64,000 bases of DNA, from contig CAXFSR010000049.1 of NCBI GenBank assembly GCA_964005815.1, positions 366 to 64,365 on the forward strand, written 5' to 3'. A program made the translations under genes and the position numbers. Shown here one piece after another: positions 34,004 to 64,000 of the stretch. Origin of the DNA: an uncultured Nitrospinaceae bacterium. GTDB taxonomy: Bacteria > UBA8248. Every line of letters begins with the position of its first letter. Position 1 is the stretch's first letter. The notes beneath the pieces were generated by a model. That model was not told the origin of the DNA. It did no database searches and was given only the letters and a program-made list of their open reading frames with translations.

Positions 34004-34429
34004 ATGCCTTACTATAATTTATATGGAATGGAGAAATTGAGAGAAAGTGAAACTCCTCTTGCCGAAATACAAAAAGTAAAAGGAGAATTTATGAAAACGG
34101 GTCTTGTCACTTACAATCAAGGTGGACACCCACGACCCCATTTCCATCCAAACGAAGAACAATTTGTTTTTATATTAGAGGGAAAAAGATATTCGATTCT
34201 AGGAGATGAAGAAAAAGTTGTAGGTCCAGGCGACCTGCTACACATCCCAAGAAATACTCGTCATTGTGCTATTACTCTAGATGAAAAATGTGTTGCATAC
34301 GTTACTAAAAGTCCAGCTGGCACAGGTCATCTTGCTCAAGATTATAACGAATCTGACGATGCGGATGAGGTAGAAAAAAGGCTCCAAGAAAAACTTGAAG
34401 AATATAAGAAAACTGGGACTATAAAGTAA
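34004..34429 (+). CDS. cupin-domain protein
   Basis: 141 aa with cupin His motifs (HPRPHFHPNEEQFVFILEG...H). Good SD (AAGGGGA) upstream. Confidence 0.65.
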   Translation: MPYYNLYGMEKLRESETPLAEIQKVKGEFMKTGLVTYNQGGHPRPHFHPNEEQFVFILEGKRYSILGDEEKVVGPGDLLHIPRNTRHCAITLDEKCVAYVTKSPAGTGHLAQDYNESDDADEVEKRLQEKLEEYKKTGTIK

Positions 34430-34455
34430 AAAACTATTTATATTGAAAGGGAAAA

Positions 34456-36102
34456 ATGAACTCTAATTTCATTCCAAACGATCCGGAAAGAGTCCGAAAT
34501 ATTTATCCATCAGTAACTCCTCAATGGCCTTTCAATCAACCCCCAAAGACCAGAGAAAGTTCTCAGCCCATATACAATATTCAATCTGATACAAACTTAA
34601 AAATTATGATGAGAGATGGCGTAAGAATAGCAGCAGATGTTTTCAGACCTAGTTCGAGTGGTCAAAAATTTCCCGCACTATTAGCAATTTCACCATATAC
34701 TAAAGGGCTTCAATCTACGAACGTTCCGATTGCCCAAAACGAAGCAGGAATAACTGAGTTTTGGGTTCCAAGGGGCTATGCACATATAATTATTGACTCA
34801 AGAGGAACAAATGACTCAGAGGGAAAATTCGATAACAGAGGAGAAATAGAACAACAAGACTTTGTAGAATTAATATATTGGGCTGCAAATCAATCCTGGT
34901 GTGATGGAACCGTTGGGATGGTAGGTTGCTCTTATTTTTCTTTAGTTCAACTTTTATCTGCAAAACACCAACCCGAACCACTAAAAGCAATCTTTCCTTA
35001 TGATGCATGGACAGATAGATACAGACACCTTTTTTATCCTGGAGGAATACCTCAAACCGGATATATGTGGATGTGGTTTTCTGCAATGTCAAACCTACAT
35101 TTTAACAGTGGGAGATCAAATGATTTATCAGGTCTAATAGAAATGATGGAAGAAGGCATGGGATTTGAAAATCCATTTGATGGAGAATTTCATTGGAAAT
35201 CTTCACCTCAACCTTTTTTAAAACAAATTAAAATCCCGACATATTTAGGTTCTGACTGGTCATTTTACTGGGATCATCTACCTGGAGTCTTTGCTGGGTG
35301 GGAAGAAATTCAAGATCCACCCAAAAGAATGCTAGTAGGTCCTAAACCTTCACCTTGGAGACCTTTTGCCGCATATCACCAAGAAACTTTACGTTGGTAT
35401 GATCAATGGCTTAAAGGAATGGATACGGGTGTTATGGATGGACCACCCATACAGCTTTTTATTCAAGGAACAAACAAATGGAGAGGAGAAAACGAGTGGC
35501 CTCTTAACAGAACAGAATGGAAAAAATTATATCTTGGAGGTCCTGATTCTGGATTAGAAGGAACCTTAACTGATTCAGAACAAAGTCAATCAGAAAGATC
35601 GTACATAAATGACCCTTTATCATCTGAGTGGCGTTACGGACATCCTAGACTTATTTACAGAACAGAAGCATTATCTGAACCTATAGAAATCACAGGTCCT
35701 TTATCTCTTCATTTAGTAGCTCATTCAAGCGCAGAAGACGTAGATTGGATTGTTTATCTATTCGATGAATCTCCAGAGGGTACGGCCCGTTTATTAACAA
35801 GAGGTTGTCTACGTGCTTCTCACAGAGAAGTAGATGCCTCTAAATCAAAACCGGGAAGACCTTGGCATCCCCACGATAGAAAAATACTCCTCATACCCAA
35901 TCAGACAGAAATTTTTGAGATTGAGATAGTTCCAACCTCCAATATTTTTCTTAAAGATCACCGAATTCGACTAGAAATTTGTAGTTGTACCTCAGCTGTT
36001 AAACGTGTCGCATATTTAGACACCTTAGCAGTAAAAGCAAAAAATACTGTTATAGAAGGACAAAATGGTTCATACTTATTTTATTCTTCGATTCCTTCTT
36101 GA
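34456..36102 (+). CDS. CocE/NonD-family alpha/beta hydrolase (X-Pro dipeptidyl-peptidase S15-like)
   Basis: 548 aa. MRDGVRIAADVFRP...LLAISPY followed by a serine hydrolase core and a C-terminal beta-sandwich. A paralog lies at 57836-59461. Confidence 0.8.
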   Translation: MNSNFIPNDPERVRNIYPSVTPQWPFNQPPKTRESSQPIYNIQSDTNLKIMMRDGVRIAADVFRPSSSGQKFPALLAISPYTKGLQSTNVPIAQNEAGITEFWVPRGYAHIIIDSRGTNDSEGKFDNRGEIEQQDFVELIYWAANQSWCDGTVGMVGCSYFSLVQLLSAKHQPEPLKAIFPYDAWTDRYRHLFYPGGIPQTGYMWMWFSAMSNLHFNSGRSNDLSGLIEMMEEGMGFENPFDGEFHWKSSPQPFLKQIKIPTYLGSDWSFYWDHLPGVFAGWEEIQDPPKRMLVGPKPSPWRPFAAYHQETLRWYDQWLKGMDTGVMDGPPIQLFIQGTNKWRGENEWPLNRTEWKKLYLGGPDSGLEGTLTDSEQSQSERSYINDPLSSEWRYGHPRLIYRTEALSEPIEITGPLSLHLVAHSSAEDVDWIVYLFDESPEGTARLLTRGCLRASHREVDASKSKPGRPWHPHDRKILLIPNQTEIFEIEIVPTSNIFLKDHRIRLEICSCTSAVKRVAYLDTLAVKAKNTVIEGQNGSYLFYSSIPS

Positions 36103-36111
36103 GGTTTTAAA

Positions 36112-37434
36112 ATGGAAGAAATTAAAAAAATAGCTTTAGAATTTATTGAAAGTCAAAAAGGAGAGGCAAAACAGATTTCTCGTGAGATTTGGAATTTTGC
36201 AGAAATAGCTCTAGAGGAATTCAAAAGTTCCGAATTACTTGTTGAGATCCTTCAGCAATACGGATTTGACGTACAATACGGAATTGGGGATCTTCCAACT
36301 GCTTTTATTGCAACTTGGGGAGATTCTGGTCCAACTATTGGTATTTTAGGCGAATATGATGCACTCCCTCACTGCGGAAACCAACATGACAAAAATGGAC
36401 ACGGCTGTGGACACAATTTGTTTGGAACTGCGTGTGTTTACGCCGCAATTTCTATATCTAAAGCACTAGAAAGAACTAAAACACCAGGTAAAGTTGTTTG
36501 CTTTGGATGCCCCGCAGAAGAAACTCTAGAAGGAAAAGTCTATATGGCTCGTGATGGTGCATTTGAAGGATTAGACGCAGTACTAACATGGCATCCTCAT
36601 TGGGCAAACTATGCTAGGGGTGGAAGTTCAAATGCAATGGACTCAATGGTTTTCGAATTTCATGGGAAAAGTTCGCATGCTGCAAGAGACCCATGGAATG
36701 GCAGAAGTGCATTAGATGGAATAGAAATCATGAACTACGGTGTCAATATGATGCGTGAACATATTATTGAAGAAGCAAGAATTCACTATGTAATAAGGGA
36801 TGGAGGAGTCCAGCCAAATGTAGTTCCTTCGTATTCACGAGTTTGGTATTACGTAAGAGCACCGAAACGCTCAATAGTAGATGAACTAAGTAGAAGGGTA
36901 CGTCAATGCGCCCAAGCTGGCGCTATAGCTTCTGAAACAGAATTTAAGGAAACTCTTTTGACGGGAGTGTATGAAACTTTACCTAATTTAGCTCTTGCTA
37001 ACTGTATACAAAGAAATCTTGAATTGGTAGGAGGACATAAATACAACAATGAAGAAAAAGATTTTGCCAAGGAATTAGGTTTCGAAGATCCCCTATTTGA
37101 AGAAATTCTTCCTTTAAATTTAGAGCATACTCGTCCTAGTAATGAACGTGGCAATGTGAGCTGGCTTGCACCTCTTGGAAGTTTTTACACTGCATGCCAC
37201 GCACCAGGAACCCCCGGTCATCATTGGCTAGCCACCCAGCAATATGGAATGGAAATAGGAGAAAAAGGAATGGAAACCGCTGCAAAAACAATCGCCACAT
37301 CTGCTTTAGAACTTATTTGCAATCCTGATGTTCTTAGTGAAGTTCAAAAAGAATTTAAAGAAAAAACAAAAGAATTTGTATATGACCCATTAGTACCAAA
37401 GGGACAAAAACCCAATCCTCTAGGGATCAGATAG
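36112..37434 (+). CDS. M20-family amidohydrolase (AbgB/hippurate hydrolase-like)
   Basis: 440 aa with an M20D metal-binding His/Asp/Glu pattern (GHGCGHNL...). Confidence 0.8.
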   Translation: MEEIKKIALEFIESQKGEAKQISREIWNFAEIALEEFKSSELLVEILQQYGFDVQYGIGDLPTAFIATWGDSGPTIGILGEYDALPHCGNQHDKNGHGCGHNLFGTACVYAAISISKALERTKTPGKVVCFGCPAEETLEGKVYMARDGAFEGLDAVLTWHPHWANYARGGSSNAMDSMVFEFHGKSSHAARDPWNGRSALDGIEIMNYGVNMMREHIIEEARIHYVIRDGGVQPNVVPSYSRVWYYVRAPKRSIVDELSRRVRQCAQAGAIASETEFKETLLTGVYETLPNLALANCIQRNLELVGGHKYNNEEKDFAKELGFEDPLFEEILPLNLEHTRPSNERGNVSWLAPLGSFYTACHAPGTPGHHWLATQQYGMEIGEKGMETAAKTIATSALELICNPDVLSEVQKEFKEKTKEFVYDPLVPKGQKPNPLGIR

Positions 37435-37451
37435 ACATTTTGAAAAAAACA

Positions 37452-37937
37452 TTAATGACATCCGCCTGTGATCCCACGCTTTAGAAAATAACTCTGATGA
37501 TATTCTTCAGCAGGCCAAAAAGTAGTCGCTCTAGTTATCTCTGTTACAATTGGGTTAGAAAATTTTCCTGAATTATTCCATTTTTCGCGAGAAATTTGCG
37601 CTAATTTCTCTTCATCAACCTCAGCAAAAAAGATAGCTGAGCGATATTGTTCTCCTATGTCAGGTCCTTGCCTATTTAACGTTGTAGGATCATGTAAATT
37701 CCAAAAACAATCTAGTAACTCTTCATAAGTAATTATAGTAGGATCAAATTCAACCCTAACAGCCTCTGCATGACCTGTACTTGAATAACACACTTCTTCG
37801 TATGTCGGATTTTCTTTACTCCCACCAATATATCCTACAGAAGTCTTTAAAACTCCATTTAAACTTTGAAAAGTAGACTCTACTCCCCAAAAACAACCAG
37901 CAGCAAAAATAGCAACAGACAATTTCAAAACCTCCAA
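37452..37937 (-). CDS. msrA: peptide methionine-S-sulfoxide reductase
   Basis: 161 aa. The GCFWGVE active-site motif is present. Confidence 0.88.
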   Translation of the reverse strand: MEVLKLSVAIFAAGCFWGVESTFQSLNGVLKTSVGYIGGSKENPTYEEVCYSSTGHAEAVRVEFDPTIITYEELLDCFWNLHDPTTLNRQGPDIGEQYRSAIFFAEVDEEKLAQISREKWNNSGKFSNPIVTEITRATTFWPAEEYHQSYFLKRGITGGCH

Positions 37938-37957: not shown

Positions 37958-39049
37958 TTAAAGGTTAACCGTTATTTTTCTTTCTTTTCCTTCCACTACT
38001 TCTCCTATTATAGACGAACAAGAAGAACCAGTAGAAATCAATTTTTGTATCATCTCCTCAGACCTTGAAGGTTCTACAGCAATTATCAAACCTCCAGAAG
38101 TTTGAGCATCGTTCAGAACGGCAATCATATTTTGGTCTAATTTATCTGAATAAGAAACAAAAGAACTAGTCCACTCTCTATTTCTTTCTCCACCTCCAGC
38201 TGTACCTTGAATAGCGTGAGATAAAACTCCTTCAAAAAGAGGTATATCTGAAAATGAAATCTCAGCATCTAATCCACTTGCATCAAGTATATTGTGAAGG
38301 TGTCCTAAAAGTCCAAAACCAGTTACGTCGGTACAAGCATTGACTGGAAATTTCAACATAACTTCGCTAGCGGTTTTGTTAAGAGTTTTCATTGAATTAA
38401 TAGATTCCTCAAAAACACCTTCCTTTAATTTGTTATTTTTAGATTTAAGCACTCTTGAAATTTTTTTTATAGGACTAGTACTTTTGTTGAGATTCGTAAT
38501 TATTCCCGTTCCTATTTTCTTTGTCAAAATCAATTTGTCTCCAGGTTTCGCCCCGCTATTTAAAATCATATCTTTAGGCTCTATAACCCCAGTTACAGCA
38601 ATCCCGTACTTTGGTTCTTGATCATCTACACTATGACCACCTAAGATAACAGCCCCTGATTCGCGAACTTTCTCGGCTCCTCCGGAAAGGATCAAGCTTA
38701 ATATATCCATTCCCAAATTACACGGGAAAGACACTAAACTCAGAGCAGTAACCGGTCTAGCTCCTATCGTATAACAGTCACTAAGAGCATTTGCAGCAGC
38801 GATCTGTCCAAAATCAAAGGGGTCATCAACAATTGGAGTGAAAAAATCTACAGTCTGAACAATTGCCAAGTCTTCTCTTAATTTGTATACACCAGTGTCA
38901 TCACAAGGATTTGTCCCATAAATTAAATTTGGATCTACAAATGGTTCAAATCCTGACAGGGCTTTTCTGAGGTCCTCCGGACCAATTTTTGAACCTCAAC
39001 CACCCGCTTTAACCATACTCGTCAAAAAAACTTTTTTTTCATTCTTCAT
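37958..39049 (-). CDS. selD: selenide, water dikinase (selenophosphate synthetase) with in-frame UGA selenocysteine
   Basis: The ORF track's TTG start at 38869 is internal. The same frame stays open upstream through a TGA (38996-38998 on the minus strand) to an ATG at 39047-39049. This gives MKNEKKVFLTSMVKAGG-U-GSKIGPEDLRKAL...FVDPNL..., which aligns residue-for-residue with E. coli SelD (HGAGC17GCKISPKVLETIL...FVDPNL). The UGA sits exactly at the Cys17 position. Confidence 0.85.
38941..38995 (-). promoter_or_regulatory. candidate SECIS stem-loop immediately 3' of the selD UGA
   Basis: mRNA after the UGA reads GGUUCAAAAAUUGGUCCGGAGGACCUCAGAAAAGCCCUGUCAGGAUUUGAACC. It has an apical GGUCC-GGA-GGACC hairpin starting 13 nt after the UGA. 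The outer arms GGUUCAAA and UUUGAACC are also complementary. Confidence 0.5.
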
Positions 39050-39232: not shown

Positions 39233-40201
39233 ATGAAAATTATCATATCTGACGATTATCAAAGAGCAATCGAATCTTTAGAATGTTTTCATAAAATTGC
39301 ACATCACGATGTAGTCATTCATAACAATACTGTTTTTGAAACTGAAGATTTAGTTAAAAGATTTTATGAAGCAGAAGGAATTGTTCTCATAAGACAACGC
39401 ACAAAGATTAATGAAGAACTTCTATCAAAACTCCCAAACTTGAAAATTATCAGTGCAACTGGAGCGAATTATGCTGGTCACATAGATGTAGAAGCTTGTT
39501 CAAAATATAACGTAGCAGTTGCTGCAGGCGGAAGCGGAACACGTTCAACTTGTGAACTAGCCTGGGGACTGATAATTTCGAGCATGCGCTCTATTCCCAA
39601 AGAAGTTTCAAGCTTAAAAAATGGTGGATGGCAAAGTTCACTTGGTGAAGATTTAAATGGAAAAACAATCGGTATATATGCTTACGGAAAAATAGGAAGA
39701 CAAATGGCACAAATTGCAAATGCATTTAATATGAATGTTCTGATTTGGGGCAGAGAATCATCAATGGAAAAAGCACAAGAAGATGGATTCAACTTTGCAA
39801 AAAATAGAGAATATTTTTTTTCTACCTCAGATATTATAAGTATTCACCTGCCTTTAAAAAAAGAGACCGAAGGGATTATAACTTCAGAGGATCTTGCTCT
39901 CATGAAAACGAACTCTGTTTTCGTAAATACAAGTCGTGCAAAAATCATAAAATCAGGAGATTTAGAAAAAGCGCTCCTTGAAGGCAGGCCTGGATTTGCA
40001 TGTGTCGATGTTTATGAAAAAGAACCAATCTACAATTCGCAAAATTCATTTATCCAAATGAAAAATACATTATGTACCCCTCACTTAGGATATGTTACTA
40101 GAGGAACATATGAAAAATATTTTGGACTTGCTTTTGATCAAATAAACTCTTTTTGTGAAGGAAAACCGATTAATCTGGTAAACCCAGAAATTTTAAAATA
40201 G
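39233..40201 (+). CDS. D-isomer-specific 2-hydroxyacid dehydrogenase (NAD-binding)
   Basis: 322 aa. Rossmann GxGxxG (IGIYAYGKIGRQ) and the catalytic R/E/H pattern of the D-2-HADH family. Confidence 0.8.
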   Translation: MKIIISDDYQRAIESLECFHKIAHHDVVIHNNTVFETEDLVKRFYEAEGIVLIRQRTKINEELLSKLPNLKIISATGANYAGHIDVEACSKYNVAVAAGGSGTRSTCELAWGLIISSMRSIPKEVSSLKNGGWQSSLGEDLNGKTIGIYAYGKIGRQMAQIANAFNMNVLIWGRESSMEKAQEDGFNFAKNREYFFSTSDIISIHLPLKKETEGIITSEDLALMKTNSVFVNTSRAKIIKSGDLEKALLEGRPGFACVDVYEKEPIYNSQNSFIQMKNTLCTPHLGYVTRGTYEKYFGLAFDQINSFCEGKPINLVNPEILK

Positions 40202-40245
40202 AATTAATATGAAAATATTTTCAATTTAACAGATAGGGGATCACC

Positions 40246-41388
40246 GTGGATTTTGAATTTGATGAAAAACAGAAATTAATGCAAAGAACTTTAGATGATT
40301 TGCTCAAAAGAGTTTGTCCCCAAGAATATTCTATGGAATGTGACGAAAAAGGCGAAGCACCAATGGAAGCCTATAAAGAAATGGCTAAAGATGGATGGAT
40401 TGGGGTATCTACTCCTGAAGAATTTGGGGGTATGGGAGGAAATGAAATTGATATGTCTATAGTTTTAGAAACCGCGGGACATCATTATCTAGATTTGGGA
40501 ACTATGATTTTTCGGAATATCTGCTATGGATGTGATGCAATCTTAACAAGTGGAACTCCAGAACAGAAGAAAAAATTTGTAACTTCAACCGTCAAGGGAG
40601 AAACTTACTTTGCATTCAGTTTAACCGAACCCGATGCAGGCTCTGATGCTGCTTCTATTATAACCCGAGCAGATAGAGAACAGGACGTTTTCAAAATTAC
40701 TGGAACGAAAAATTATACTTCTGGCATGCCTATAGCTACAGATGTTTTAGTTGCAGTCAGAACAAACAAAAACGCAAAAAAACATGAAGGAATTACCAAC
40801 TTCATCATCCCTGCCGATAGAGAAGGTATTGAATGGAAAAAACTGCGTTTGATGGGACATAGAGCAATGGGAACATGTGAAGTTCATTACAATGGTGTCG
40901 AAGCTTCAGAAACAGAAATTTTAGGAGATCTAGATGATGGATGGAATGGATTAATGAAATACATTACAACAGAGAGATTATGTCTATCTGCAGCCAGAAC
41001 AGGTGCTGCAGCAAGCGCTCTAAAAATGGCGATAAAACACGCTCAAGAACGGCATCAATTTGGAAGACCTATTGGAAAGTTTCAAGCTGTTAGCCACATG
41101 ATTACGGAAATGCATACTCTAGTAGATACTGCTCGATTGCAAGTTTATAGATTTGCATGGCTTGCCTCCCAAGGTCATGCTGGGAGGTTAGAAGCTGCCA
41201 CCCTAAAACTATACGCTGCTGAGGCCTATAAAAAAGTTGCAGATTTAGGTGTACAAGTACTAGGAGGATATGGATATAGTGCAGAATTTCCAATGGAAAG
41301 ACATTATAGAGATGCGCGCCTTGCGACTATTGGAGCAGGTTCAAGTGAAATTCAAAGGAATATTATTGCAAAGGAATTAGGACTGTAG
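40246..41388 (+). CDS. acyl-CoA dehydrogenase
   Basis: 380-aa ACAD fold (three domains). The C-terminal GGYGYSAEFPMERHYRDARLATIGAGSSEIQ matches the ACAD signature. Confidence 0.85.
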   Translation: MDFEFDEKQKLMQRTLDDLLKRVCPQEYSMECDEKGEAPMEAYKEMAKDGWIGVSTPEEFGGMGGNEIDMSIVLETAGHHYLDLGTMIFRNICYGCDAILTSGTPEQKKKFVTSTVKGETYFAFSLTEPDAGSDAASIITRADREQDVFKITGTKNYTSGMPIATDVLVAVRTNKNAKKHEGITNFIIPADREGIEWKKLRLMGHRAMGTCEVHYNGVEASETEILGDLDDGWNGLMKYITTERLCLSAARTGAAASALKMAIKHAQERHQFGRPIGKFQAVSHMITEMHTLVDTARLQVYRFAWLASQGHAGRLEAATLKLYAAEAYKKVADLGVQVLGGYGYSAEFPMERHYRDARLATIGAGSSEIQRNIIAKELGL

Positions 41389-41426
41389 TAACTATTTATA
41401 ACAAATTAAAATTTCAGGAGTAATAA

Positions 41427-41894
41427 ATGGCTTTAGATTTAAAAGTTTTAGAAATGGATTTCCCTGAATTTGAAATTTTAGTTGAAAGAGGAAAAATAAG
41501 AGAATACGTCTCTGTTTTGGGACTGGAAGACCCTGTTCATTTTGATGTTCAGGCGGCAAAAGATGCAGGGTATAATGATCTGTTAGCACCAGCAACATTT
41601 ACTAGACAGTTCTGGCATGAAAATAACGAAAATGACCCTATGCAACATTTAGGTTATGACCCAAAAAGAAGACTGCATGGGGAACAAGAATTTGAATATT
41701 TCAAACCCTTGACTGCTGGAATGACATTGAAAGGAAAAAACGTGATCGTCTCCCACAAAGAGAAAGAAGGAAAACGGGGTGGAAAAATGACATTTGTTGT
41801 CATTGAAACTAAATTTTTAGACGAAAATGGGGAACTAGTCCAAATCGCAAGAAGGACTTTGATTGAAACCGCGGCTCCCCCTAAAAATAATTAA
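41427..41894 (+). CDS. MaoC-N-like hotdog protein (non-catalytic partner of a heterodimeric R-specific enoyl-CoA hydratase)
   Basis: 155 aa, MaoC_dehydrat_N/HadA-ChsH1-like. About 60% identical by eye to the ORF at 43992-44441. Confidence 0.7.
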   Translation: MALDLKVLEMDFPEFEILVERGKIREYVSVLGLEDPVHFDVQAAKDAGYNDLLAPATFTRQFWHENNENDPMQHLGYDPKRRLHGEQEFEYFKPLTAGMTLKGKNVIVSHKEKEGKRGGKMTFVVIETKFLDENGELVQIARRTLIETAAPPKNN

Positions 41895-41908
41895 AGGAAT
41901 ATATTAAA

Positions 41909-44924: not shown

Positions 44925-45043
44925 CTCTGCCACTATTGTATTTACGTATCCTTGAGCGGGATGCTCTGGTTGATCGATTACCCTCTTTCCTGGGACATTA
45001 CTTTGATCTGCTGCAGTTGTCGGCTTCAAAACGTGAACTCCTT

Positions 45044-47952: not shown

Positions 47953-47978
47953 AAAATAGGATTGTTACCTATTTTTTT
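47953..47978. terminator. putative bidirectional rho-independent terminator
   Basis: AAAATAGG-attgtta-CCTATTTT is an 8-bp perfect stem followed by a T-run (TTTTTTTGA) on the plus strand. It overlaps the stop of the convergent minus-strand gene. Confidence 0.35.
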
Positions 47979-54867: not shown

Positions 54868-54919
54868 AATTTTAACATTAAACTACTAAATAAATTCGAA
54901 AATTGATGCGAGGGGAAAA

Positions 54920-56114: not shown

Positions 56115-56885
56115 TTAAATCATAAGAATTCCACCATTTACATCTAAGGTTACACCGGTAATGTAACTTGCTTGTCGACTACATAAAAATAGAATCGGCC
56201 AGGCAATTTCTTCCGGATCACACATTCTACCTAAAGGAGAGTTCTTTCTTATTCTGTCCATCTGTTCTTCTGTTCTCATTGCGATAGTTCTAGGAGTATT
56301 CACGTTCGCAGGAGCAACAGAATTTACGGTAATTCCAAAGGGGCCGAACTCTTTAGCTGCTTGTCTTGTTAATGAAAGTAATCCTCCTTTAGAAGCGGTA
56401 TAATGAGGAGAATGTGTAGCAACACGGGCAGCAGCACTTGAAAGAGAGATGATTCTTCCGTAGTTATTTTTTTTCATCAAAGGAGTAATTGCTTTCAGTA
56501 ACAAAAAAAAACTTTTTAAATTGTTATCTACAATATCATCCCACTCATCTACAGGAAGATCCGTGAGTGAAATATATTGTGGAAAACCACCTGCACTATG
56601 AACTAAGGAATGGATATGTCCTGCTTCATTTTCAATTCTTTTGACCGACTTTTGAATTGCTAACCAATCGGTTAAATCAAGGCAGGCAACAAGAGCCTTA
56701 CCTCCTGAGCCAGTAATATCATTGGCAACTCTCTCTACCCCTTTTTTATCGAAATCCATAACTACAACATTCGCACCCCGCGATGCAAATAATTTTGCGC
56801 ACATTTCGCCTATCCCAGTTGCAGCACCTGTAACAACCGCGACCTCTCCATCAAAATTCATAATTAATGAGTCGTGTTTAATCAT
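56115..56885 (-). CDS. SDR-family oxidoreductase
   Basis: 256 aa with TGAATGIG cofactor motif and YxxxK (YTASK) catalytic dyad. Confidence 0.85.
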   Translation of the reverse strand: MIKHDSLIMNFDGEVAVVTGAATGIGEMCAKLFASRGANVVVMDFDKKGVERVANDITGSGGKALVACLDLTDWLAIQKSVKRIENEAGHIHSLVHSAGGFPQYISLTDLPVDEWDDIVDNNLKSFFLLLKAITPLMKKNNYGRIISLSSAAARVATHSPHYTASKGGLLSLTRQAAKEFGPFGITVNSVAPANVNTPRTIAMRTEEQMDRIRKNSPLGRMCDPEEIAWPILFLCSRQASYITGVTLDVNGGILMI

Positions 56886-56897
56886 TATTTTAATTTT

Positions 56898-57791
56898 CTA
56901 ATCGAATCTCTCAGGCAAACCAGCCATTTTTCTTAGAACTTCAAAAACTGCCACAGAATCTCTCTCAGCATGACCATTTTCGTATGCATTTTGTGCTAAT
57001 TGAGACCATATACTAGTCATTAACATTGGAGAACCAAATCTTTGTCCTTGTTCCAACATCAATCTTGAATCCTTTAAAGAAATTTTGATTAAACCTTCTG
57101 GGCTATAATCTCCATTGATCATTTTTGGACCTTTATCTATCATCGTTTTAGATGAACATGCTCCATCTTGAAGTACTTCAAGTAAGTTATTCAATTCCAT
57201 ACCAGCCTTTGTTCCTAAAGACAGGGCCTCAGCAAGTGCAAGTCGATTGCCTGCAAGAACTAAATTGATAATCAATTTCGTAAGAGCTCCAGAACCAACC
57301 GCACCCATCAAATATGAAGCTCGACTAAATCCATCAAAATATGGTTTGCAAGCATTAAAATCTTCTTGTTCCCCTCCTGCAATGATTATCAAATCTTTTT
57401 TCCAAGCCATTGCACTTGTTCCACTAACTGCAGCATCAAGAAAGCGAATCCCTTTCTCTGCTAATTCTTTTCCCAAAACCTCTGAATCTTCAGGTCTCGA
57501 GGTAGTAGCATCAGCTATAATAAGACCTTCTTCTGCACTTTCCATAATCCCATTATTGCCGAAAATTACTTCTCTGACGATATCACTAGTAGGCAGAGAA
57601 GTTATCAGCCAATTTACTCCTTTAGCTGCTGCTGAAGGAGATTCCGCAGAAATTCCACCTCTTTCTACAAATTCGTCAACTCTTTTCCCATCTAAGTCAA
57701 AACCCTGCACCTCATAACCAGCATTAAGAAGATTCCCTGAAATAGCTGAACCCATCAATCCGATTCCTACAATACCAACACGCTCTGACAT
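56898..57791 (-). CDS. NAD(P)-dependent beta-hydroxyacid dehydrogenase (3-hydroxyisobutyrate dehydrogenase family)
   Basis: 297 aa with N-terminal VGIVGIGLMGSAISGNL and an MmsB/6PGDH NAD-binding fold. Confidence 0.8.
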   Translation of the reverse strand: MSERVGIVGIGLMGSAISGNLLNAGYEVQGFDLDGKRVDEFVERGGISAESPSAAAKGVNWLITSLPTSDIVREVIFGNNGIMESAEEGLIIADATTSRPEDSEVLGKELAEKGIRFLDAAVSGTSAMAWKKDLIIIAGGEQEDFNACKPYFDGFSRASYLMGAVGSGALTKLIINLVLAGNRLALAEALSLGTKAGMELNNLLEVLQDGACSSKTMIDKGPKMINGDYSPEGLIKISLKDSRLMLEQGQRFGSPMLMTSIWSQLAQNAYENGHAERDSVAVFEVLRKMAGLPERFD

Positions 57792-57835: not shown

Positions 57836-59461
57836 CTATCTAGGAATAAATGGAACAATCAATCTAGATTGTTCCTTCCCAGTTAAAATAGTGTTAGTGA
57901 CAGGTCTAGGAATTGGATCATGTGTGTAAATTAAATTTGTTACTGGATCACATGATGAAATTTCTAATTTTAATGAATGCCCCTCAAGGAACAAATTACA
58001 CGTAGAGACTATTTCAATTTCGTACTCATACACTTCACCAGGATTAATCAACTCTACTTTATTATGAGGGTGCCAAGGTCTCCAATTCTTACTTTTTTGT
58101 GAATCTAATGCTCTATGAGAAGCTTTTAAACAACCACGAGTTAAAACTTTCTCTGAACCATCGGGAAATTCATCTTTAACAAAAACAAACCAATCCGTAT
58201 CATCCTGATCAGAAATTGCAAATAATTTCAGAACTAATGGTCCTGTAATTTCAAATGGTTTTTCCGCTGGTTCAGTTCTAAAAACTAATTTTGGTTCACC
58301 GAGTTTTGACTCTGACGTTCCAGGAACAAATTTATAACATCTCTCCCCATAAGAGGAAACATTTTCAGTAAGCCTTTCGCCATCAAGATAAAGCTCCTTC
58401 CAATCCGTTCTCTCTAAAGGCCATTCTTTCTCAGTCCTCCAAGTATTTTCTCCTTGAATAAAAATATTAATCGGAGGACCTTCATTTACTCCTGTATCCA
58501 ATTCTTTCAAATAATGGTCATACCAGCGAAGAGCCTCAAAATGATATACGCCAAAAGGTCTTCTAGGCTGGGGTTCAGGACCAATCAACATTCTTTTTGG
58601 GGTACTTTGAGGTATTAAATCCCAACCCTCAAAAGCCCCTCTTAAATGAAGACCATAAAAATTCCAATCGCATCCAAGATATGTGGGAACTTCTATTTTG
58701 CATAAATTAGACCATGAAGACCGCTCTTGAAAGTACTCACAGTCAAGACTATCTTTTCCACTTAAAACTCGATTAAAATGATAATTAAAACCAGAGAGAT
58801 CTTTCACACGACCACTTGTATGATTCAAGAACATTAAACTCGTGAACCAAAAACGCGCCCAAGCAGAATAGATTCCTCCATGATAATAGGCATCACGATA
58901 TAAATCAGTCATTGCATCATATGGAAAGATTGCAGAAAGTCCTTCGGGTTGCTGTTGCGCGGCAAGTAATTGACTCATCCCAAAATAAGAACATCCAATC
59001 ATACCTACTTTTCCATTACACCAAGGTTGATTAGCAATAAACTCTATCATCTCTTTTAAGTCTTTTTGTTCTTCTGGACCCCAATGATCCCATGCCCCTC
59101 CCGAATCATTAGAACCTCTAACATCTGCAATAATTTGAACATAGCCCCTAGGCACCCAAAATTCAGTCAGTCCTGCCTCATTTTGTCCGATAGGAACCAT
59201 GGTTGGCTGTAGTTGTCGAGTGTATGGAGACCAAGAAAGCAGAGCTGGAAATTTTTCGCCAGAAACATTAGGTCTATACACATCATAAAAGATATCTATC
59301 CCATCTCTTACCGTAAGTGTTTTTGAGTTTTCTATGAAAACAGAATATTTAGGAAGAGAAATTTCCCTGCTCTTGGGTTCTTCATTAAAAGGATATTGCG
59401 GCCAGGAAGATGGATTGATAGTTCGAATGCTTTCCGGATTCACTTTGGGAAATTGATTCAT
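57836..59461 (-). CDS. CocE/NonD-family hydrolase (paralog)
   Basis: 541 aa. Collinear similarity to 34456-36102 (e.g. VRDGIDIFYDVYRP...LLSWSPY; GPPINIFIQGENTWR). Confidence 0.8.
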   Translation of the reverse strand: MNQFPKVNPESIRTINPSSWPQYPFNEEPKSREISLPKYSVFIENSKTLTVRDGIDIFYDVYRPNVSGEKFPALLSWSPYTRQLQPTMVPIGQNEAGLTEFWVPRGYVQIIADVRGSNDSGGAWDHWGPEEQKDLKEMIEFIANQPWCNGKVGMIGCSYFGMSQLLAAQQQPEGLSAIFPYDAMTDLYRDAYYHGGIYSAWARFWFTSLMFLNHTSGRVKDLSGFNYHFNRVLSGKDSLDCEYFQERSSWSNLCKIEVPTYLGCDWNFYGLHLRGAFEGWDLIPQSTPKRMLIGPEPQPRRPFGVYHFEALRWYDHYLKELDTGVNEGPPINIFIQGENTWRTEKEWPLERTDWKELYLDGERLTENVSSYGERCYKFVPGTSESKLGEPKLVFRTEPAEKPFEITGPLVLKLFAISDQDDTDWFVFVKDEFPDGSEKVLTRGCLKASHRALDSQKSKNWRPWHPHNKVELINPGEVYEYEIEIVSTCNLFLEGHSLKLEISSCDPVTNLIYTHDPIPRPVTNTILTGKEQSRLIVPFIPR

Positions 59462-59479: not shown

Positions 59480-61168
59480 CTAAAATTCTGAATATGCTCC
59501 TGGAGCAAGCGCTTTTATGTCAGTAACAACGTCTACAATAATGGGACCAGTTTTTGTTTTTAAGGCTGTCTGAAGTTTTGATTTAAGATCTTTTTCTTTT
59601 TCAATCCGAATTCCCTTAGCACCCATAGATTTCGCAACTTGGACAAAATTAGTTTTCTCGAAATGCCAAAGTTCATGCGCTTTACCGTGTTGTTTCCCAC
59701 CATACGCATCATCAAAAATTTTTGTTTCTTGATTTTGTGAACTATTGTTATTTACAAGAATAACCAAAGGGATTTTCCAACGAACTGCTGTCTCAATTTC
59801 TCCTATGTGATACCAGAAACCAGCATCCCCAGTAAAAAGGACAACTGGACGATTGGGGGCAGCACACTTAGCTCCGATTGCAGCAGGGAAACCCCACCCC
59901 AGATGACCCGCAGCTCTTATGAAACTATTCTCTCCGCCATTTAAATCAAGGTATCCACCTGTCCACATCCCAGAATGTCCGGTATCAGACAAGAGGATTG
60001 AATCATTTGGAAGAATATCTGAGAGAATCTGACAAACTCTCTCTGGTCTTATAGGATTTTTCTTTGAATTTAGCAAAGGAGCAAATTCTTTCCTCCAATT
60101 TGAAACTATTTTTTGGAATCTTTTTTTCCAATTTACTCTCTTACTATTTTGACTATCATCACAAAACTCAATTAATTTGCTTAAGGAGATTTTTGCATCT
60201 CCGTTAATAGATGCAAGCAAAGGATAATTTCTTCCAAGTTCTTCTGGGTCTATGTCTAACTGAATGGCAGAAACCCCGATCTTAGGAACCTTCCAAAAAT
60301 GAGTAGTCATTCCACCCGTTTTTGTACCTATAAAGAAAACAAGATCTGCTTCTGAAACAATTTGGTTCGCACTTCTTCTAGAATAACTACCGACAACACC
60401 AACAGATAGTTCATGATTGCCTGGAATAACTTCTTTAGCATTCATAGAAGTAGCGACCGGGATAGAAAGTTTTTCTGCAAGCTCCACTAGTTCTTTATGA
60501 GCTAAAGATGTACGCACACCTCCACCACAGACAATAACGGGCTTTTTACTAGAACTAAGTATTTTCGCCACTTTTTTTAACGAATCAATACTAGGCTCTG
60601 GACGATAGGCAGGAGTACACTTGAAATCTTCTTCTACAACAAGTTTAAGGTTTGCTTTCTTCTGTTCTATTTGTCCTAAATTTCCAGCAAATCTTAAATG
60701 CACTGGGCCAGGCGTACCAGATGTAGCTACTCTAAAAGCTTGTCTTAATAAATCAGGAAATCTTTCAACATCATCCACATATGCATTGAATTTCGTAACT
60801 GGATCGAACGCAGAAATATCTTCTACTTCTTGATATGGATTCCTATAACGAATCGATGGAGTTGTCCCACCTGTGAAAGCTATCACTGGCGAGGAAGCTA
60901 AATATGCTTCTCTAAGCCCCGCAGCGAGATTAACTCCTCCTACAATTTGCGCCATACAAATACCAGGGCGTCCGGATATTCGGGCATAAGCGTCAGCCAT
61001 ATATGCTGCAGATTTTTCTCCATGTGTTAAAACTCTAGAAATTCCCGTGTTCTTTTTATCCATTTGGGCCAAAGAATGGCTCAGAATTGTGGGAACGAAA
61101 AAAATATGCGTGACACCATATGCTTTCATAGTATCGGCCATAAACTCAGCACCTGACATTCTTGGCAT
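59480..61168 (-). CDS. thiamine-pyrophosphate enzyme (paralog of 53194-54867)
   Basis: 562 aa. RVLTHGEKSAAYMADAYAR... and the TGDAGFWYHIGEIETAVRWKIPLVILVNNN TPP motif. Confidence 0.8.
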   Translation of the reverse strand: MPRMSGAEFMADTMKAYGVTHIFFVPTILSHSLAQMDKKNTGISRVLTHGEKSAAYMADAYARISGRPGICMAQIVGGVNLAAGLREAYLASSPVIAFTGGTTPSIRYRNPYQEVEDISAFDPVTKFNAYVDDVERFPDLLRQAFRVATSGTPGPVHLRFAGNLGQIEQKKANLKLVVEEDFKCTPAYRPEPSIDSLKKVAKILSSSKKPVIVCGGGVRTSLAHKELVELAEKLSIPVATSMNAKEVIPGNHELSVGVVGSYSRRSANQIVSEADLVFFIGTKTGGMTTHFWKVPKIGVSAIQLDIDPEELGRNYPLLASINGDAKISLSKLIEFCDDSQNSKRVNWKKRFQKIVSNWRKEFAPLLNSKKNPIRPERVCQILSDILPNDSILLSDTGHSGMWTGGYLDLNGGENSFIRAAGHLGWGFPAAIGAKCAAPNRPVVLFTGDAGFWYHIGEIETAVRWKIPLVILVNNNSSQNQETKIFDDAYGGKQHGKAHELWHFEKTNFVQVAKSMGAKGIRIEKEKDLKSKLQTALKTKTGPIIVDVVTDIKALAPGAYSEF

Positions 61169-61216
61169 ATAAAAACTCCTTATCTCTTTTTAAATTTCAG
61201 AAACTACGTCTTATTT

Positions 61217-62011
61217 CTATAAACCTATTATCGCTTTAGCCTCGTCAACCGAAGCGATTTCTCTACCTAATATTTTTGCAATATTCGCTATTCGATTTAC
61301 ATGCTCTGGATTATCTCCAAAGACACCAGGACTTAGAAATGGCTCATCTTCTGTACCGACACGAACATGACCACCTTCCATTACGGCCATAGTCTCTAGG
61401 TGTAAATGAGTATTACCCGTAACGCTTGTAATGTATATTGAGTCCTCAGGAAGTGCAGAAACTCTATGCAAGAATTCTTTCATCGTCGCAGGTGACCACG
61501 CACCACCAGGTCTACCGAAAAATACTGTCATTAGTACTGGAGTTTTAATTAAATCTTTATCTAACAAATCATTGATCATCCATAATTCGCCGATACTAAA
61601 TACTTCAAATTCTGGTTTCACATTATAGTCAGCACAAAGTTTCATCATATCTGCAATTTCATCTCGGGGATGCAACATCATAACGTCACCCTGTAAAAAA
61701 GCCATATTATGCGCTCCAACCGCAACAGACATCATTTCAGGCTGAAACTTCACTACTTCACGTCTTTGTTCAAGAGTCTGCGTAGAAATTCCATACTGCA
61801 ACATAACGGGACAACAATCACGAATCGCTTTTGTATGATTTTCCCAAGCTTCATAATTTGTAGGAGGTGCGTGGATATGAGCGATACAAGAACCTGATTC
61901 CCATCCTTTTTTAACAGAACTCGCTAGAACTTCCGAATCATGGAATCTTTTTTCAACGCCTTCGTGCATAGATGTATCTGCTGCACAGTTTATAATCATA
62001 AGTTTTGACAT
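61217..62011 (-). CDS. beta-keto acid cleavage enzyme (BKACE/DUF849, 3-keto-5-aminohexanoate cleavage enzyme-like)
   Basis: 264 aa. KLMIINCAAD...HIH...GGHVRVGTEDEP matches the TIM-barrel BKACE signature. Confidence 0.65.
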   Translation of the reverse strand: MSKLMIINCAADTSMHEGVEKRFHDSEVLASSVKKGWESGSCIAHIHAPPTNYEAWENHTKAIRDCCPVMLQYGISTQTLEQRREVVKFQPEMMSVAVGAHNMAFLQGDVMMLHPRDEIADMMKLCADYNVKPEFEVFSIGELWMINDLLDKDLIKTPVLMTVFFGRPGGAWSPATMKEFLHRVSALPEDSIYITSVTGNTHLHLETMAVMEGGHVRVGTEDEPFLSPGVFGDNPEHVNRIANIAKILGREIASVDEAKAIIGL

Positions 62012-62036
62012 TAATAATCCCTCATTACTAAAAAAT

Positions 62037-62840
62037 TTAATTTAGCCCTAGAATTTGTTTGGTTTCATCAACAGTTGCAGGTTCTCTACCTAGTTCTTTT
62101 GAAATTCGAACCATTCTCGAAACAAGCTGTGCATTATCCTCGGCTAAGACCCCTTTTGTATAATAAGGTTCATCCTCCGTACCAACTCGGACATGACCTC
62201 CTTGAATAATAGAAACCGTTTCTAAAGCAACATTACTCAAACCAGCAGCACTAACAGAAAAAACAGAATTTTCAGGTAAATGTTCAATTCGATGCAACAG
62301 TTCTTTTAAAGTTGCTGGAGACCAAAATCCGCCTGGCCATCCGAAAAAAATGGTCAAAACGACCGGATTTTTTACTAAATCTTTCTCTAAGAGCCATTCT
62401 AAATTCCATAAATGTCCCAAATTAAAACATTCAAATTCTGGATGCACTCCATTGTCATTGAATAGTCTTACTTGATCTTCAATTTCCTGTCTTGAATGTT
62501 CAACTAACAAATCTGCATCAACAAACGCAAAATCATGAGAACCAAGAGCGATAGAAGCCATATCAGGTTTCAAATGAACTATTTTCTTTCTTCCTGGCAA
62601 ACCCATAGCAGCAATTCCGAATTGAATGAGAATTTCAGGACAAGCTTCTCGTACTGCATTCGTAAAAGGTTCCCAACTATCTAACTGCATTGGAATTCCA
62701 TGAATATGTGCTATCGAAGCACCTGCGTCGTAACTTGCCTTAATTTCACTTGCAAGAGATTCCGCAGTCTGAAGACGTTTTGGGACACCTGGATGCTTAC
62801 GACTATCTGCTGCACAATTAGTTATTATTAACTTTTCGAT
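62037..62840 (-). CDS. BKACE/DUF849 paralog, apparently initiating at a non-canonical AUC codon
   Basis: The ORF-track Met at 62690 is internal. The frame is open upstream to a TAG at 62853-62855. The upstream translation IEKLIITNCAADSRKHPGV...ASIAHIHGIP aligns with the paralog N-terminus MSKLMIINCAADTSMHEGV...CIAHIHAPP. An ATC sits exactly where the paralog has its ATG, and a perfect AGGAGG lies 8 nt upstream. Confidence 0.6.
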   Translation of the reverse strand: MEKLIITNCAADSRKHPGVPKRLQTAESLASEIKASYDAGASIAHIHGIPMQLDSWEPFTNAVREACPEILIQFGIAAMGLPGRKKIVHLKPDMASIALGSHDFAFVDADLLVEHSRQEIEDQVRLFNDNGVHPEFECFNLGHLWNLEWLLEKDLVKNPVVLTIFFGWPGGFWSPATLKELLHRIEHLPENSVFSVSAAGLSNVALETVSIIQGGHVRVGTEDEPYYTKGVLAEDNAQLVSRMVRISKELGREPATVDETKQILGLN

Positions 62841-62883
62841 GTTAACTTCCTCCTACAATAGAAAAGACTGGGAATAATAATGA

Positions 62884-63654
62884 TTAATCAATAGTACTTT
62901 CAGCGTATAACAAACCTCTAATCCTTTGGGTTAACTTAACAAATTCAGGATCTCCCATTGTCTTAAGATCTCGAGGACGTGGAATATCTACTGGAATGAT
63001 CTCCGCAATTTTTCCAGGTCTTGCTGTCATGACAACAATTCGATCTCCTAGAAAAACAGCCTCTGGTATACTATGAGTGATAAAGAAAACCGTTTTTTTA
63101 CTTTCTAACCAGATTCTCTGTAGTTCTAAATTCATTTGTTCTCTAGTCATAGCATCCAATGCACCAAAAGGTTCATCCATCAGAAGTAAACTGGGATCAT
63201 GAATTAATGCTCTAATTATAGAGTTTCTTTGCTTCATTCCACCTGATAATTCATGAGGGTATTTATCTTCAAATCCATCAAGACCAACCAAATTGATTAA
63301 TTCTTTAGCTCTTTTAGTTGTTACTTCTGAATCAAGATTTAAGATTTCAGAGGGAAGAAGTGTATTTTGTAATACAGTTCTCCAGAGAAGAAGAACAGGA
63401 TCCTGGAAAACAATTCCAACATCATTTCGAGGACCTTCAATCGCAGTATTATTTAAAGTAACCACTCCGGACGTTTTTGCTAAGAGACCACTTAAAATTT
63501 TTAATAATGTACTTTTGCCACAACCACTTGGCCCAACAACAGAGACAAACTCTCCTTCAGAAATATCCAAGTTTATGTCAGATAGAGCATGCACAATTTC
63601 ACCAGTTGAGGTGATGTATTCCTTTTCTAAATTTTTAACGGAAATGTAAGACAT
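62884..63654 (-). CDS. ABC transporter ATP-binding protein (nitrate/sulfonate/taurine NitT-TauT family)
   Basis: 256 aa. Walker A GPSGCGKST, signature LSGGMKQR and Walker B LLLMDEPFGALD. Overall TauB/SsuB-like. Confidence 0.85.
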   Translation of the reverse strand: MSYISVKNLEKEYITSTGEIVHALSDINLDISEGEFVSVVGPSGCGKSTLLKILSGLLAKTSGVVTLNNTAIEGPRNDVGIVFQDPVLLLWRTVLQNTLLPSEILNLDSEVTTKRAKELINLVGLDGFEDKYPHELSGGMKQRNSIIRALIHDPSLLLMDEPFGALDAMTREQMNLELQRIWLESKKTVFFITHSIPEAVFLGDRIVVMTARPGKIAEIIPVDIPRPRDLKTMGDPEFVKLTQRIRGLLYAESTID

Positions 63655-63684
63655 TTTTAAATTTCAATTTTAAGTTTTAAAAAA

Positions 63685-64000
63685 TTAAGTTCCTGTTGTT
63701 TGTTCTGTTTCTGGTGCCCAAAACAGTATTTTCTTTTTTGTAATTTGAACCATTTTATGCATCGCCAAACCAATCATTGAAAGCAAAACAAGAATCGCAA
63801 ATGTACCTGTTGTATCAGCTGCAAAACTCATTTGCATTAAGAGGACTCCTAATCCACATTGTCCTTTTCCACCCCACATACACATTCCTGCTCCTACAAA
63901 TTCTCCTAAAATAGCACCTAGTAAACTAAAGACTACTGCTATTTCAAATCCAGCAAAAATAAACGGTAGTGCATTAGGAAATTGCAATTTTCTAAATGTC
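63685..64000 (-). CDS. ABC transporter permease (TauC/SsuC-like), C-terminal part; gene continues beyond the window
   Basis: Hydrophobic C-terminal TM segments directly upstream of the ATPase gene. The reading frame is open to the window edge. Confidence 0.6.
   Translation of the reverse strand, partial: TFRKLQFPNALPFIFAGFEIAVVFSLLGAILGEFVGAGMCMWGGKGQCGLGVLLMQMSFAADTTGTFAILVLLSMIGLAMHKMVQITKKKILFWAPETEQTTGT

Follow-up and report, generated by a model that had tools for sequence, protein, structure and literature searches.

Whether a chromosomal region dense in catabolic gene families serves a single pathway or holds several operons side by side is the question raised by the right-hand part of a 64,000-nucleotide stretch of DNA (the window) from an uncultured Nitrospinaceae bacterium (NCBI GenBank assembly GCA_964005815.1, contig CAXFSR010000049.1, positions 366 to 64,365 of the forward strand). 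A preliminary description had read the 30 kb from position 34004 to the right edge as one paralog-rich island for a single organic acid or osmolyte. We listed the open reading frames (ORFs) between 30 and 64 kb, scanned 29 plausible genes against Pfam and compared the region with contig stretches of relatives that were fetched for comparison and labelled L005, L090, L100 and so on. Every gene family called in that description is present at its coordinates and the Pfam families agree: two CocE/NonD hydrolases (Peptidase_S15 and PepX_C; 34456+ and 57836-), two enzymes with three thiamine pyrophosphate (TPP) domains (53194+ and 59480-), two CoA_transf_3 proteins (42331+ and 54920+), two acyl-CoA dehydrogenases (ACADs; 40246+ and 49051-), two β-keto acid cleavage enzymes (BKACE; 61217- and 62037-) and two hotdog pairs made of a FAS1_DH_region and a MaoC protein (41427/41909, +, and 43992/43552, -). 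Also present are M20, D-2-hydroxyacid dehydrogenase (D2HADH), short-chain dehydrogenase (SDR), MmsB-like, Iso_dh, Gfo/Idh/MocA and amine-oxidase/CrtI-like proteins, a lone FAD_binding_2 and Succ_DH_flav_C protein, an ATP-binding cassette (ABC) ATPase and a partial BPD_transp_1 permease. The region is indeed catabolic and import-linked. In our assessment, though, it is probably not one pathway; we read it as a mosaic of separate operons that includes two old, independent modules, namely module A (39233-43533, +) and module B, a minus-strand operon that runs across the right edge of the window.

Gene order in relatives carries this reading. Eighty loci around homologues of TPP2, the TPP enzyme of module B, were taken from species-representative genomes together with earlier loci, and searched by tblastn with all proteins of the region. 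On a 4.48-Mb contig, the neighbourhood of CaiB1, the CoA-transferase gene of module A, spans 0.54-0.56 Mb and is at least 1.1 Mb away from the TPP2 operon (1.70-1.72 Mb); on a 2.93-Mb contig the two occupy 2.67-2.69 Mb and 1.86-1.88 Mb, with at least 0.8 Mb between them (the module A loci L100 and L101 share contigs with the module B loci L012 and L018). With these distances the two modules are not co-localised, and a single island is not supported; dispersal of the parts in relatives is the very outcome that the preliminary description had named as speaking against one island with one substrate. The CaiB1 neighbourhood of the relatives holds genes for a cupin, an aldo-keto reductase, M20, a luciferase-like protein, MsrA, SelD, D2HADH, ACAD, HadA, HadB and CaiB; in L101, ThiI lies upstream. 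In the region, then, the left third is old backbone synteny, housekeeping genes included; a separate old operon makes up the right third, and the middle is specific to the clade.

Strand and spacing (gaps of -4 to 62 bp) divide the region into at least seven gene blocks, with MsrA, SelD, an OsmC-like gene and a nuclease between them. From left to right these are cupin-CocE1-M20 (+); the housekeeping pair MsrA-SelD (-); D2HADH-ACAD1-HadA-like-HadB-like-CaiB1 (+), which is module A; a second, inverted hotdog pair (-); the OsmC-like gene, the nuclease and a small basic protein; an SdhA-like gene (+); Gfo-CrtI-ACAD2-IMDH (-), the last being an isopropylmalate/tartrate-dehydrogenase-family gene; TPP1-CaiB2 (+), divergent from the preceding block; and a long minus-strand run of SDR, MmsB, CocE2, TPP2, BKACE1, BKACE2, ATPase and permease. 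The boundaries once drawn around the island prove arbitrary: housekeeping genes lie inside them, and catabolic genes continue for at least 9 kb past the right edge of the window. The left 34 kb are mostly housekeeping (aconitase, rlmN, dxs, ispA, xseA, folD, cysE-iscS-nifU, greA, thiI), with a hydantoinase A/B pair among them.

The earlier view that this is no recent mobile island holds. No tRNA gene was found in the whole window and no transposase or mobile-element family among the ORFs scanned against Pfam, and in relatives of about 94% identity the genes are colinear; a metagenome scan with CaiB1 returned close relatives only (84-94%), which informs on colinearity and not on deep synteny. 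The GC content at third codon positions (GC3) is 0.239 in the region versus 0.225 in the rest of the window (p = 0.05), no meaningful difference, and recent horizontal transfer was rejected on this similarity.

Seven homologous pairs among the 29 genes on the right, compared with one pair (32% identical) among 29 on the left, bear out the reported paralog richness, and this enrichment exceeds chance. Expansion by duplication in situ, which had been proposed as its cause, fits at most the old tandem BKACE pair; the members of the TPP, CocE and hotdog pairs have closer relatives elsewhere than each other. All-against-all BLASTP gave identities of 50% for the CocE pair, 50% for TPP, 48% for BKACE, 61% for hotdog A and 52% for hotdog B; the CaiB and ACAD pairs, at 30% and 25%, are therefore co-members of a family and nothing closer. 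TPP1 has homologues of 59-68% identity in other lineages, and in an identity matrix the TPP1 group (59-84% within) and the TPP2 group (60-90% within) are only 47-57% identical to each other, so that by sequence comparison the two appear as different old orthologous groups, each with members from other phyla. HotA2, the HadA-like protein of the second hotdog pair, is 61% identical to hotA1 of module A and 63% to the orthologues of hotA1, which are themselves 77-78% identical to hotA1; hotA2 falls outside that group, and the second pair is therefore not a recent local copy. An exhaustive search with CocE1 against 1.84 billion representative proteins yielded no full-length sequence nearer than about 50%, and partial sequences lie nearer to CocE1 (57%) or to CocE2 (63%); the pair is an old split within a small subfamily. 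Both BKACE copies have orthologues of 71-82% identity in relatives, some of which keep just one, pointing to an old tandem duplication whose copies are not obligate partners.

The proposal that the whole 30 kb is an old island for one organic acid or osmolyte, built by local duplication, can draw on the density of catabolic families, the seven homologous pairs, the colinearity in relatives of about 94% identity and the uniform GC3. We nevertheless regard it as improbable, given the distances between the modules in two relatives' genomes, the housekeeping genes within the region, the clade-specific middle genes, and pairs that are separate old orthologous groups or merely family-level kin. For dense "paralog-rich islands" in compact genomes (the contig of the window is compact and of low GC content, about 37%) the lesson for annotation is that they can be unrelated operons side by side.

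Module B is a minus-strand operon of 11 genes whose beginning lies past the right edge of the window. Its genes encode, in order, an M24 hydrolase, a cyclase-family metal hydrolase, an NMT1-type binding protein, a permease, an ATPase, BKACE2, BKACE1 and TPP2, followed by CocE2, the MmsB-like dehydrogenase and the SDR. The window holds the 3' part of the permease gene (BPD_transp_1; 63685 to the window end at 64000), the ABC ATPase (ABC_tran; 62884-63654), BKACE2 (62037-62840, from an ATC start) and BKACE1 (61217-62011), both PF05853, TPP2 (59480-61168, acetolactate synthase-like with three TPP domains) and, by Pfam, CocE2 (57836-59461), the MmsB-like β-hydroxyacid dehydrogenase (56898-57791) and the SDR (56115-56885). 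Longer contigs of the same organism continue with the full permease, the NMT1 binding protein, the cyclase-family (PF04199) protein and an M24/Creatinase_N hydrolase. A binding-protein gene had been predicted just past the right edge, and there it is: L090 and L091 carry one of NMT1 type beside the permease. Proteins that match those of the window exactly occur on Tara Oceans and other marine contigs.

The core of this operon, from the M24 hydrolase through one or two BKACE genes to TPP2, keeps its order in about 17 loci from Nitrospinota and Tectomicrobia. The core proteins are 66-83% identical in relatives, the binding protein 57-58% in Tectomicrobia. GC content is 36-39% in the clade of the window and 52-67% in relatives with the core operon, and identity held across this shift (L005, L008, L012, L018, L024) points to strong purifying selection. 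TPP2 orthologues are 66-95% identical and always stand at the 3' end of the core; those of 95% identity, with the same gene order, are from uncultured Nitrospinaceae, and remoter ones are from Nitrospinota/Nitrospinae and Candidatus Tectomicrobia. A tblastn search of annotated plasmids with TPP2 gave only Achromobacter matches, 44% identical and of another family. CocE2, MmsB and SDR, separated by gaps of 12-44 bp on the strand of TPP2, form a clade-specific 3' extension found in L007, L010, L025 and L090; they do not follow TPP2 in relatives of about 74% identity. Divergent from the operon, L090:1-5613 encodes an ACAD-fold protein that scores highest against DszC/SfnB-type oxygenases, as well as an EamA transporter, a further ACAD, a second and weakly DoeA-like M24/Creatinase_N protein, and an ankyrin-repeat protein.

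BKACE is indeed associated with a NitT/TauT-like importer, as reported, and the association is conserved: a PF09084 (NMT1) binding protein adjoins the permease and ATPase genes in L090 and in relatives. The binding protein scores 66 bits against the SsuA_fam model, far below the cut-off of 163.5, and the match therefore implies no ligand class. The BKACE proteins match PF05853 at 158 and 180 bits (cut-off 24.8), and their motifs AHIH, PEFE and GGHVRVGTED align with IHLH, PEVE and GGHIRCGFED of Kce from lysine fermentation (2Y7D), the best PDB and NCBIfam match of both. The zinc ligands (HxH and Glu) and the catalytic Glu, Arg and Asp of Kce are kept in both proteins, in BKACE2 only with the ATC start. 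For BKACE2 the earlier call thus stood as to family and fell short as to length, since the conserved N-terminus, with its HxH zinc motif, begins from the ATC at 62840; this codon (62838-62840) lies 7 nt after AGGAGG, and the corresponding codons of relatives read ATG GAG. In public gene calls the start is an internal ATG at 62690, which yields a 217-aa product without the zinc-binding HxH. Unlike in Kce, the amine-binding Glu14 is not kept (an ungapped extension of the alignment places Thr13 of BKACE1 and Ser13 of BKACE2 there), the NF052387 scores of 140 and 154 bits are far below the cut-off of 382, and no lysine aminomutase or 3,5-diaminohexanoate dehydrogenase genes lie near the BKACE genes of module B. 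Both proteins fall below the NCBIfam equivalog cut-offs for Kce, 3-oxoadipate and 3,5-dioxohexanoate enzymes.

The conserved partners of BKACE are the M24 hydrolase, the cyclase-family hydrolase and the TPP enzyme, and not dehydrogenases. The M24 protein has a Creatinase_N and M24 architecture; aminopeptidase P and prolidases rank highest among its PDB matches (at most 83 bits), and its NCBIfam matches (PepQ, DoeA and DddP) are all far below their cut-offs. A true creatinase was rejected, there being none among the PDB matches at E<=1e-10. The cyclase-family protein reaches only 28 bits against isatin hydrolase. Among 64 more distant TPP2-family loci, mostly from soil Alpha- and Betaproteobacteria, the most frequent neighbours are TctC binding proteins (24 loci) and cyclase-family genes (25 loci); in soil Xanthobacteraceae, Burkholderiales and others (L027-L089; for example L048:8952-9962 and L065:9092-9787) TPP2-family genes often stand directly beside a PF04199 gene and TctC-type binding proteins. 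The TPP-cyclase couple looks like the deepest association, and its recurrence across soil Proteobacteria suggests a more widespread, uncharacterised enzyme couple.

How might these activities fit together? Most likely, a small organic solute would enter through the binding-protein-dependent ABC system; the cyclase-family enzyme and the M24 hydrolase, joined in this clade by CocE2, would open or deacylate it by hydrolysis. The MmsB-like and SDR dehydrogenases of this clade would then oxidise the product to a β-keto acid where needed, BKACE would cleave the latter to acetoacetate and an acyl-CoA, and the acetolactate synthase-like TPP2 would take an α-keto acid or 1,2-dicarbonyl intermediate. 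In phloroglucinol degradation a cyclic 1,3-dione is opened by an enzyme of the cyclase family, which leaves a β-keto acid for a BKACE to cleave; isatin hydrolase, also of the cyclase family, opens a cyclic amide (C-N) bond (PMC10470551). We reason that an isatin-type opening would give an α-keto acid suited to a thiamine diphosphate (ThDP)-dependent decarboxylase. That module B is a previously undescribed pathway which couples the opening of a ring or amide by hydrolysis to C-C cleavage of both BKACE and ThDP type is possible but unlikely in our judgement. Of interest in any case is a strongly conserved, uncharacterised operon of Nitrospinota and Tectomicrobia, whose best analogy is the cyclase, dehydrogenase and BKACE of phloroglucinol degradation. 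Keyword searches of the accessible literature found no description of this operon, the parts of the Nitrospinota comparative-genomics paper PMC10839748 that a keyword search reaches do not mention it, and a search for Nitrospinota together with creatinase returned nothing.

The phloroglucinol analogy can be pressed further, to outright orthology. The cluster of Clostridium scatologenes (PGR, DPGC, a dehydrogenase and TAL; PMC10470551) likewise co-locates a PF04199 hydrolase with a BKACE, an SDR and a β-hydroxyacid-type dehydrogenase, and shares the logic of ring or amide opening, oxidation to a β-keto acid and Claisen-type cleavage with acetyl-CoA to acetoacetate. On this account the SDR would be the phloroglucinol reductase (PGR), the cyclase-family protein the dihydrophloroglucinol cyclohydrolase (DPGC), the MmsB-like protein the hydroxy-oxohexanoate dehydrogenase and BKACE the triacetate acetoacetate-lyase (TAL), four matching families of a characterised pathway in one operon of this clade (PMC10470551). 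We hold this to be very unlikely, however. The SDR and the dehydrogenase lie outside the conserved core; TAL has Trp at the position where Glu14 of Kce binds the amine (PMC10470551), whereas BKACE1 and BKACE2 have Thr and Ser; and the BKACE proteins score 94-115 bits against the 3,5-dioxohexanoate model with its cut-off of 430. Furthermore, the additional ABC importer, M24 hydrolase and acetolactate synthase-like TPP enzyme are left without explanation, and module B also has a second BKACE.

Carnitine had also been suggested as the model for module B. A β-hydroxy quaternary amine would be oxidised to a β-keto acid, which BKACE would split into acetoacetate and betainyl-CoA. Bastard et al. are said to have described, in 2014, such a route of carnitine dehydrogenase and BKACE, and carnitine use is reported for sponge-associated relatives. 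The β-hydroxy acid dehydrogenase and BKACE logic beside an importer resembles it, with BKACE genes near the MmsB-like and SDR dehydrogenases, and TauD-family genes, a family to which we take γ-butyrobetaine hydroxylase to belong, lie close to the operon in L005 and L008. Yet no 3HCDH-type carnitine dehydrogenase, thioesterase or binding protein of betaine type was seen (that of module B is NMT1/SsuA-like); the conserved partners of BKACE are hydrolases and a TPP enzyme, the conserved core does without dehydrogenases, the conserved M24, cyclase and TPP genes have no part in the route, and Ser or Thr stands at the Glu14 position of Kce. The suggestion is thus not supported, and we rate it as very improbable. 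Carnitine, sulfonate and formyl-CoA variants of module B are possible readings that lack hallmark genes, and taurocyamine, creatinine, tetramic-acid, isatin-like and sulfonate substrates are guesses.

The TPP enzymes raise two further alternatives. TPP1 (53194-54867, +) is followed after 52 bp by CaiB2 (54920-56110, +), a family III CoA-transferase, an arrangement read earlier as following oxc-frc or 2-hydroxyacyl-CoA lyase (HACL) logic. Like that system, the pair (53194-56110) has a TPP gene before a family III CoA-transferase gene from the same superfamilies, with HACL and Oxc as detectable homologues. In ranked PDB scores, which are not a tree, TPP2 reaches 257 bits to BbmA (over its full length), 205 to acetolactate synthase (ALS), 185 to Gcl and 168 to HACL/Oxc, and TPP1 197 bits to ALS, 196 to BbmA and 139 to HACL/Oxc. 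The best NCBIfam models of both are ALS-like subfamilies (285-347 bits, cut-offs 538-1084), and Oxc models are not among the top 25 matches. Several identities were rejected: biosynthetic ALS large subunit (TIGR00118, 285 and 340 bits vs 538; neighbours CaiB2, CocE2 and BKACE), Xsc (TIGR03457, 206 and 263 bits vs 676), Gcl (no NCBIfam cut-off passed) and, for CaiB2, Frc (TIGR03253 and NF003809, 245 and 255 bits vs 504 and 442, each match in two stretches). CaiB2 is also below the NCBIfam cut-offs for CaiB and YfdW. Three other lineages (L097-L099) have no CaiB gene beside their TPP1 homologues; there, a MetE-like protein or an M24 hydrolase lies alongside, or no related gene. Membership in an oxc-frc or HACL system is thus not supported, with the adjacency not kept outside the close clade, and the analogy is weak.

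A second formyl-CoA version would let the MmsB-like dehydrogenase produce malonate semialdehyde, from which BKACE would make formyl-CoA and acetoacetate, and the former would go to a family III transferase or a TPP lyase. Among 124 BKACE enzymes tested, more than 20 make formyl-CoA from malonate semialdehyde together with acetyl-CoA (PMC11961710), and on that account the formyl-CoA reading in its two versions keeps a probability, though a very low one: the scores of 139-168 bits to Oxc/HACL against 197-257 to ALS, Gcl or BbmA, the Frc scores of CaiB2 and the neighbours in L097-L099 all speak against it.

That the TPP enzymes are ordinary biosynthetic acetolactate synthases in coincidental company is scarcely credible. 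ALS families do supply the top NCBIfam models and some sources name homologues "acetolactate synthase large subunit", but the scores are far below the cut-offs, no small-subunit gene is adjacent, TPP2 stays fixed at the end of the importer/BKACE operon across phyla-level GC shifts, and BbmA ranks above ALS for TPP2. BbmA, of the BbmA/CsmA ThDP enzymes (PDB 8X3X, 8X3Z), is the best solved-structure match of TPP2; the identity is moderate, any transfer of function would be tentative, and a literature search found no paper on BbmA/CsmA function.

Returning to the mosaic of separate operons with modules A and B, several points weigh against it or against the route proposed for module B. The distances between the modules presume that the ENA and NCBI copies have the same orientation; otherwise the modules lie still further apart. 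Operon ends rest on strand, spacing and conservation only, and scans for promoters and terminators, whose matches were no commoner than in shuffled sequence, were not used. No protein of the region exceeds any NCBIfam equivalog cut-off. The dehydrogenases that would make the β-keto acid are absent from the conserved core of relatives. We know of no BKACE pathway that needs a TPP enzyme, and the role of TPP2 is the weakest step of the proposal. Finally, co-regulation, or a substrate class that came to be shared later, could still lie behind the physical clustering in this clade.

Marine Nitrospinota are the main nitrite oxidisers of the water column and are usually modelled as autotrophs. If the proposed route of module B is true, these presumed chemolithoautotrophs would turn an imported organic solute into acetoacetate and acetyl-CoA, possibly with release of nitrogen. 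The strong conservation of this import-and-cleavage operon, and its expansion in a streamlined pelagic clade, point to one particular organic substrate, which could matter for mixotrophy or nitrogen acquisition.

Module A comprises five plus-strand genes: a D-isomer 2-hydroxyacid dehydrogenase (39233-40201; 2-Hacid_dh_C, E 4e-47) that passes no NCBIfam equivalog, ACAD1 (40246-41388; three ACAD domains), a HadA-like (41427-41894; FAS1_DH_region) and a HadB-like protein (41909-42334; MaoC_dehydratas), and the family III CoA-transferase CaiB1 (42331-43533; CoA_transf_3, E 1e-108). Gene order is the same in L100 and L101, where hotA1 orthologues, as given above, are 77-78% and those of hotB1, the HadB-like protein, 59-61% identical, and CaiB1 orthologues of 67-74% identity occur in Nitrospinota, Tectomicrobia and Methylomirabilales. 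ACAD1 has acryloyl-CoA reductase as its best NCBIfam match (263 bits vs a cut-off of 640), and CaiB1 scores 189 and 200 bits against the Frc models TIGR03253 and NF003809 and is below the CaiB and YfdW cut-offs too. From family membership, the module would most likely activate a carboxylic acid by CoA transfer and pass it through a β-oxidation-like dehydrogenation and (R)-hydration, in which the HadA/HadB-like pair is probably a heteromeric enoyl-CoA hydratase of (R) specificity with CoA esters as substrates. FAS1_DH_region and MaoC genes that adjoin each other beside an ACAD and a CoA-transferase recall the HadAB hydratases and ChsH1-ChsH2 of β-oxidation-like side-chain degradation; unlike there, module A has no adjacent aldolase or thiolase, and the HadA and HadB models match at 57-74 bits vs cut-offs of 180-203.

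The genes between the modules, the second hotdog pair and the SdhA-like gene among them, are confined to the low-GC clade of the window and are best explained as having accreted beside old modules and not as locally duplicated, an account that we consider probable together with the rest of the mosaic. Relatives of 90-95% identity (L007, L010, L025) are the only ones in which CocE2, MmsB, SDR, CaiB2, TPP1, Gfo, CrtI, ACAD2 and IMDH were found. The inverted second hotdog pair (HadB-like 43552-43995 and HadA-like 43992-44441, -; Pfam) is absent from L100 and L101. The stand-alone SdhA/TfrA-like flavoprotein (46229-47941, +; FAD_binding_2 and Succ_DH_flav_C) has TfrA as its best NCBIfam match (413 bits vs a cut-off of 718) and no iron-sulfur or membrane subunit gene beside it. 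The minus-strand block of IMDH (47965-49041), ACAD2 (49051-50226), the CrtI-like flavoprotein (50263-51852) and Gfo/Idh/MocA (51915-53039), all assigned by Pfam, has only NCBIfam matches below cut-off and is restricted to the close clade (L007, L010, L025, L095), with L007 lacking ACAD2.

At the left end of the region, the first block (+) opens with a Cupin_2 protein (34004-34429; PF07883, E 2e-14) without an NCBIfam match, followed by CocE1 (34456-36102; Peptidase_S15 and PepX_C), which exceeds the cut-off of TIGR00976 at 265 bits, and the M20 amidohydrolase (36112-37434; M20_dimer and Peptidase_M20), which exceeds that of the amidohydrolase subfamily TIGR01891 at 209 bits. M20 is kept at the corresponding position in L100 and L101 and CocE1 is not. 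Next come the housekeeping genes for MsrA (37452-37937, -; PMSR, E 3.5e-63) and the selenophosphate synthetase SelD (37958-39049, -; AIRS and AIRS_C), a pair whose position is kept in the distant relatives L100 and L101. The true start of SelD is the ATG at 39049, not the TTG at 38869, and an in-frame TGA (38996-38998) within a conserved motif (KAGG*GSKIG) probably encodes selenocysteine; an Rfam search for a selenocysteine insertion sequence (SECIS) gave no match for SelD. About 6 kb away, an OsmC-like protein that is not catabolic (44484-45101, -, start codon uncertain; OsmC PF02566, E 1.3e-10 with the stop read as Cys) is probably a second selenoprotein: it consists of two adjacent ORFs of about 100 aa parted by an in-frame TGA (44781-44783; ALGVGF*LLTQVARYA), at what we take to be the position of the catalytic Cys of OsmC. 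With the ATC start of BKACE2 and the two in-frame TGA codons, three genes here are mis-called by standard rules. Filler genes are an SNase-family nuclease (45044-45553, -; SNase, E 5e-20) and a basic LTXXQ/Metal_resist-like protein (45682-46185, +; Metal_resist, 23.7 bits, below the cut-off). An Rfam scan of the window and three related loci that covered riboswitches such as those for guanidine and TPP gave no matches.

Some genes in the left part of the window also deserve mention. No Pfam family was matched at E<=0.001 by three minus-strand ORFs (3937-4704, 8057-9685 and 22695-23474; 255, 542 and 259 aa), the last of which follows a 990-aa fusion of a 4Fe-4S dicluster domain and a molybdopterin oxidoreductase (19720-22692, -). 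Left of the boundary once drawn for the island, hydantoinase/oxoprolinase A and B subunits stand between a class IV and a class I/II aminotransferase (23995-29837, -), a catabolic-looking group. Among the housekeeping genes, 9833-10621 (+) encodes a 2-phosphosulfolactate phosphatase (ComB family), possibly relevant to sulfonate metabolism.

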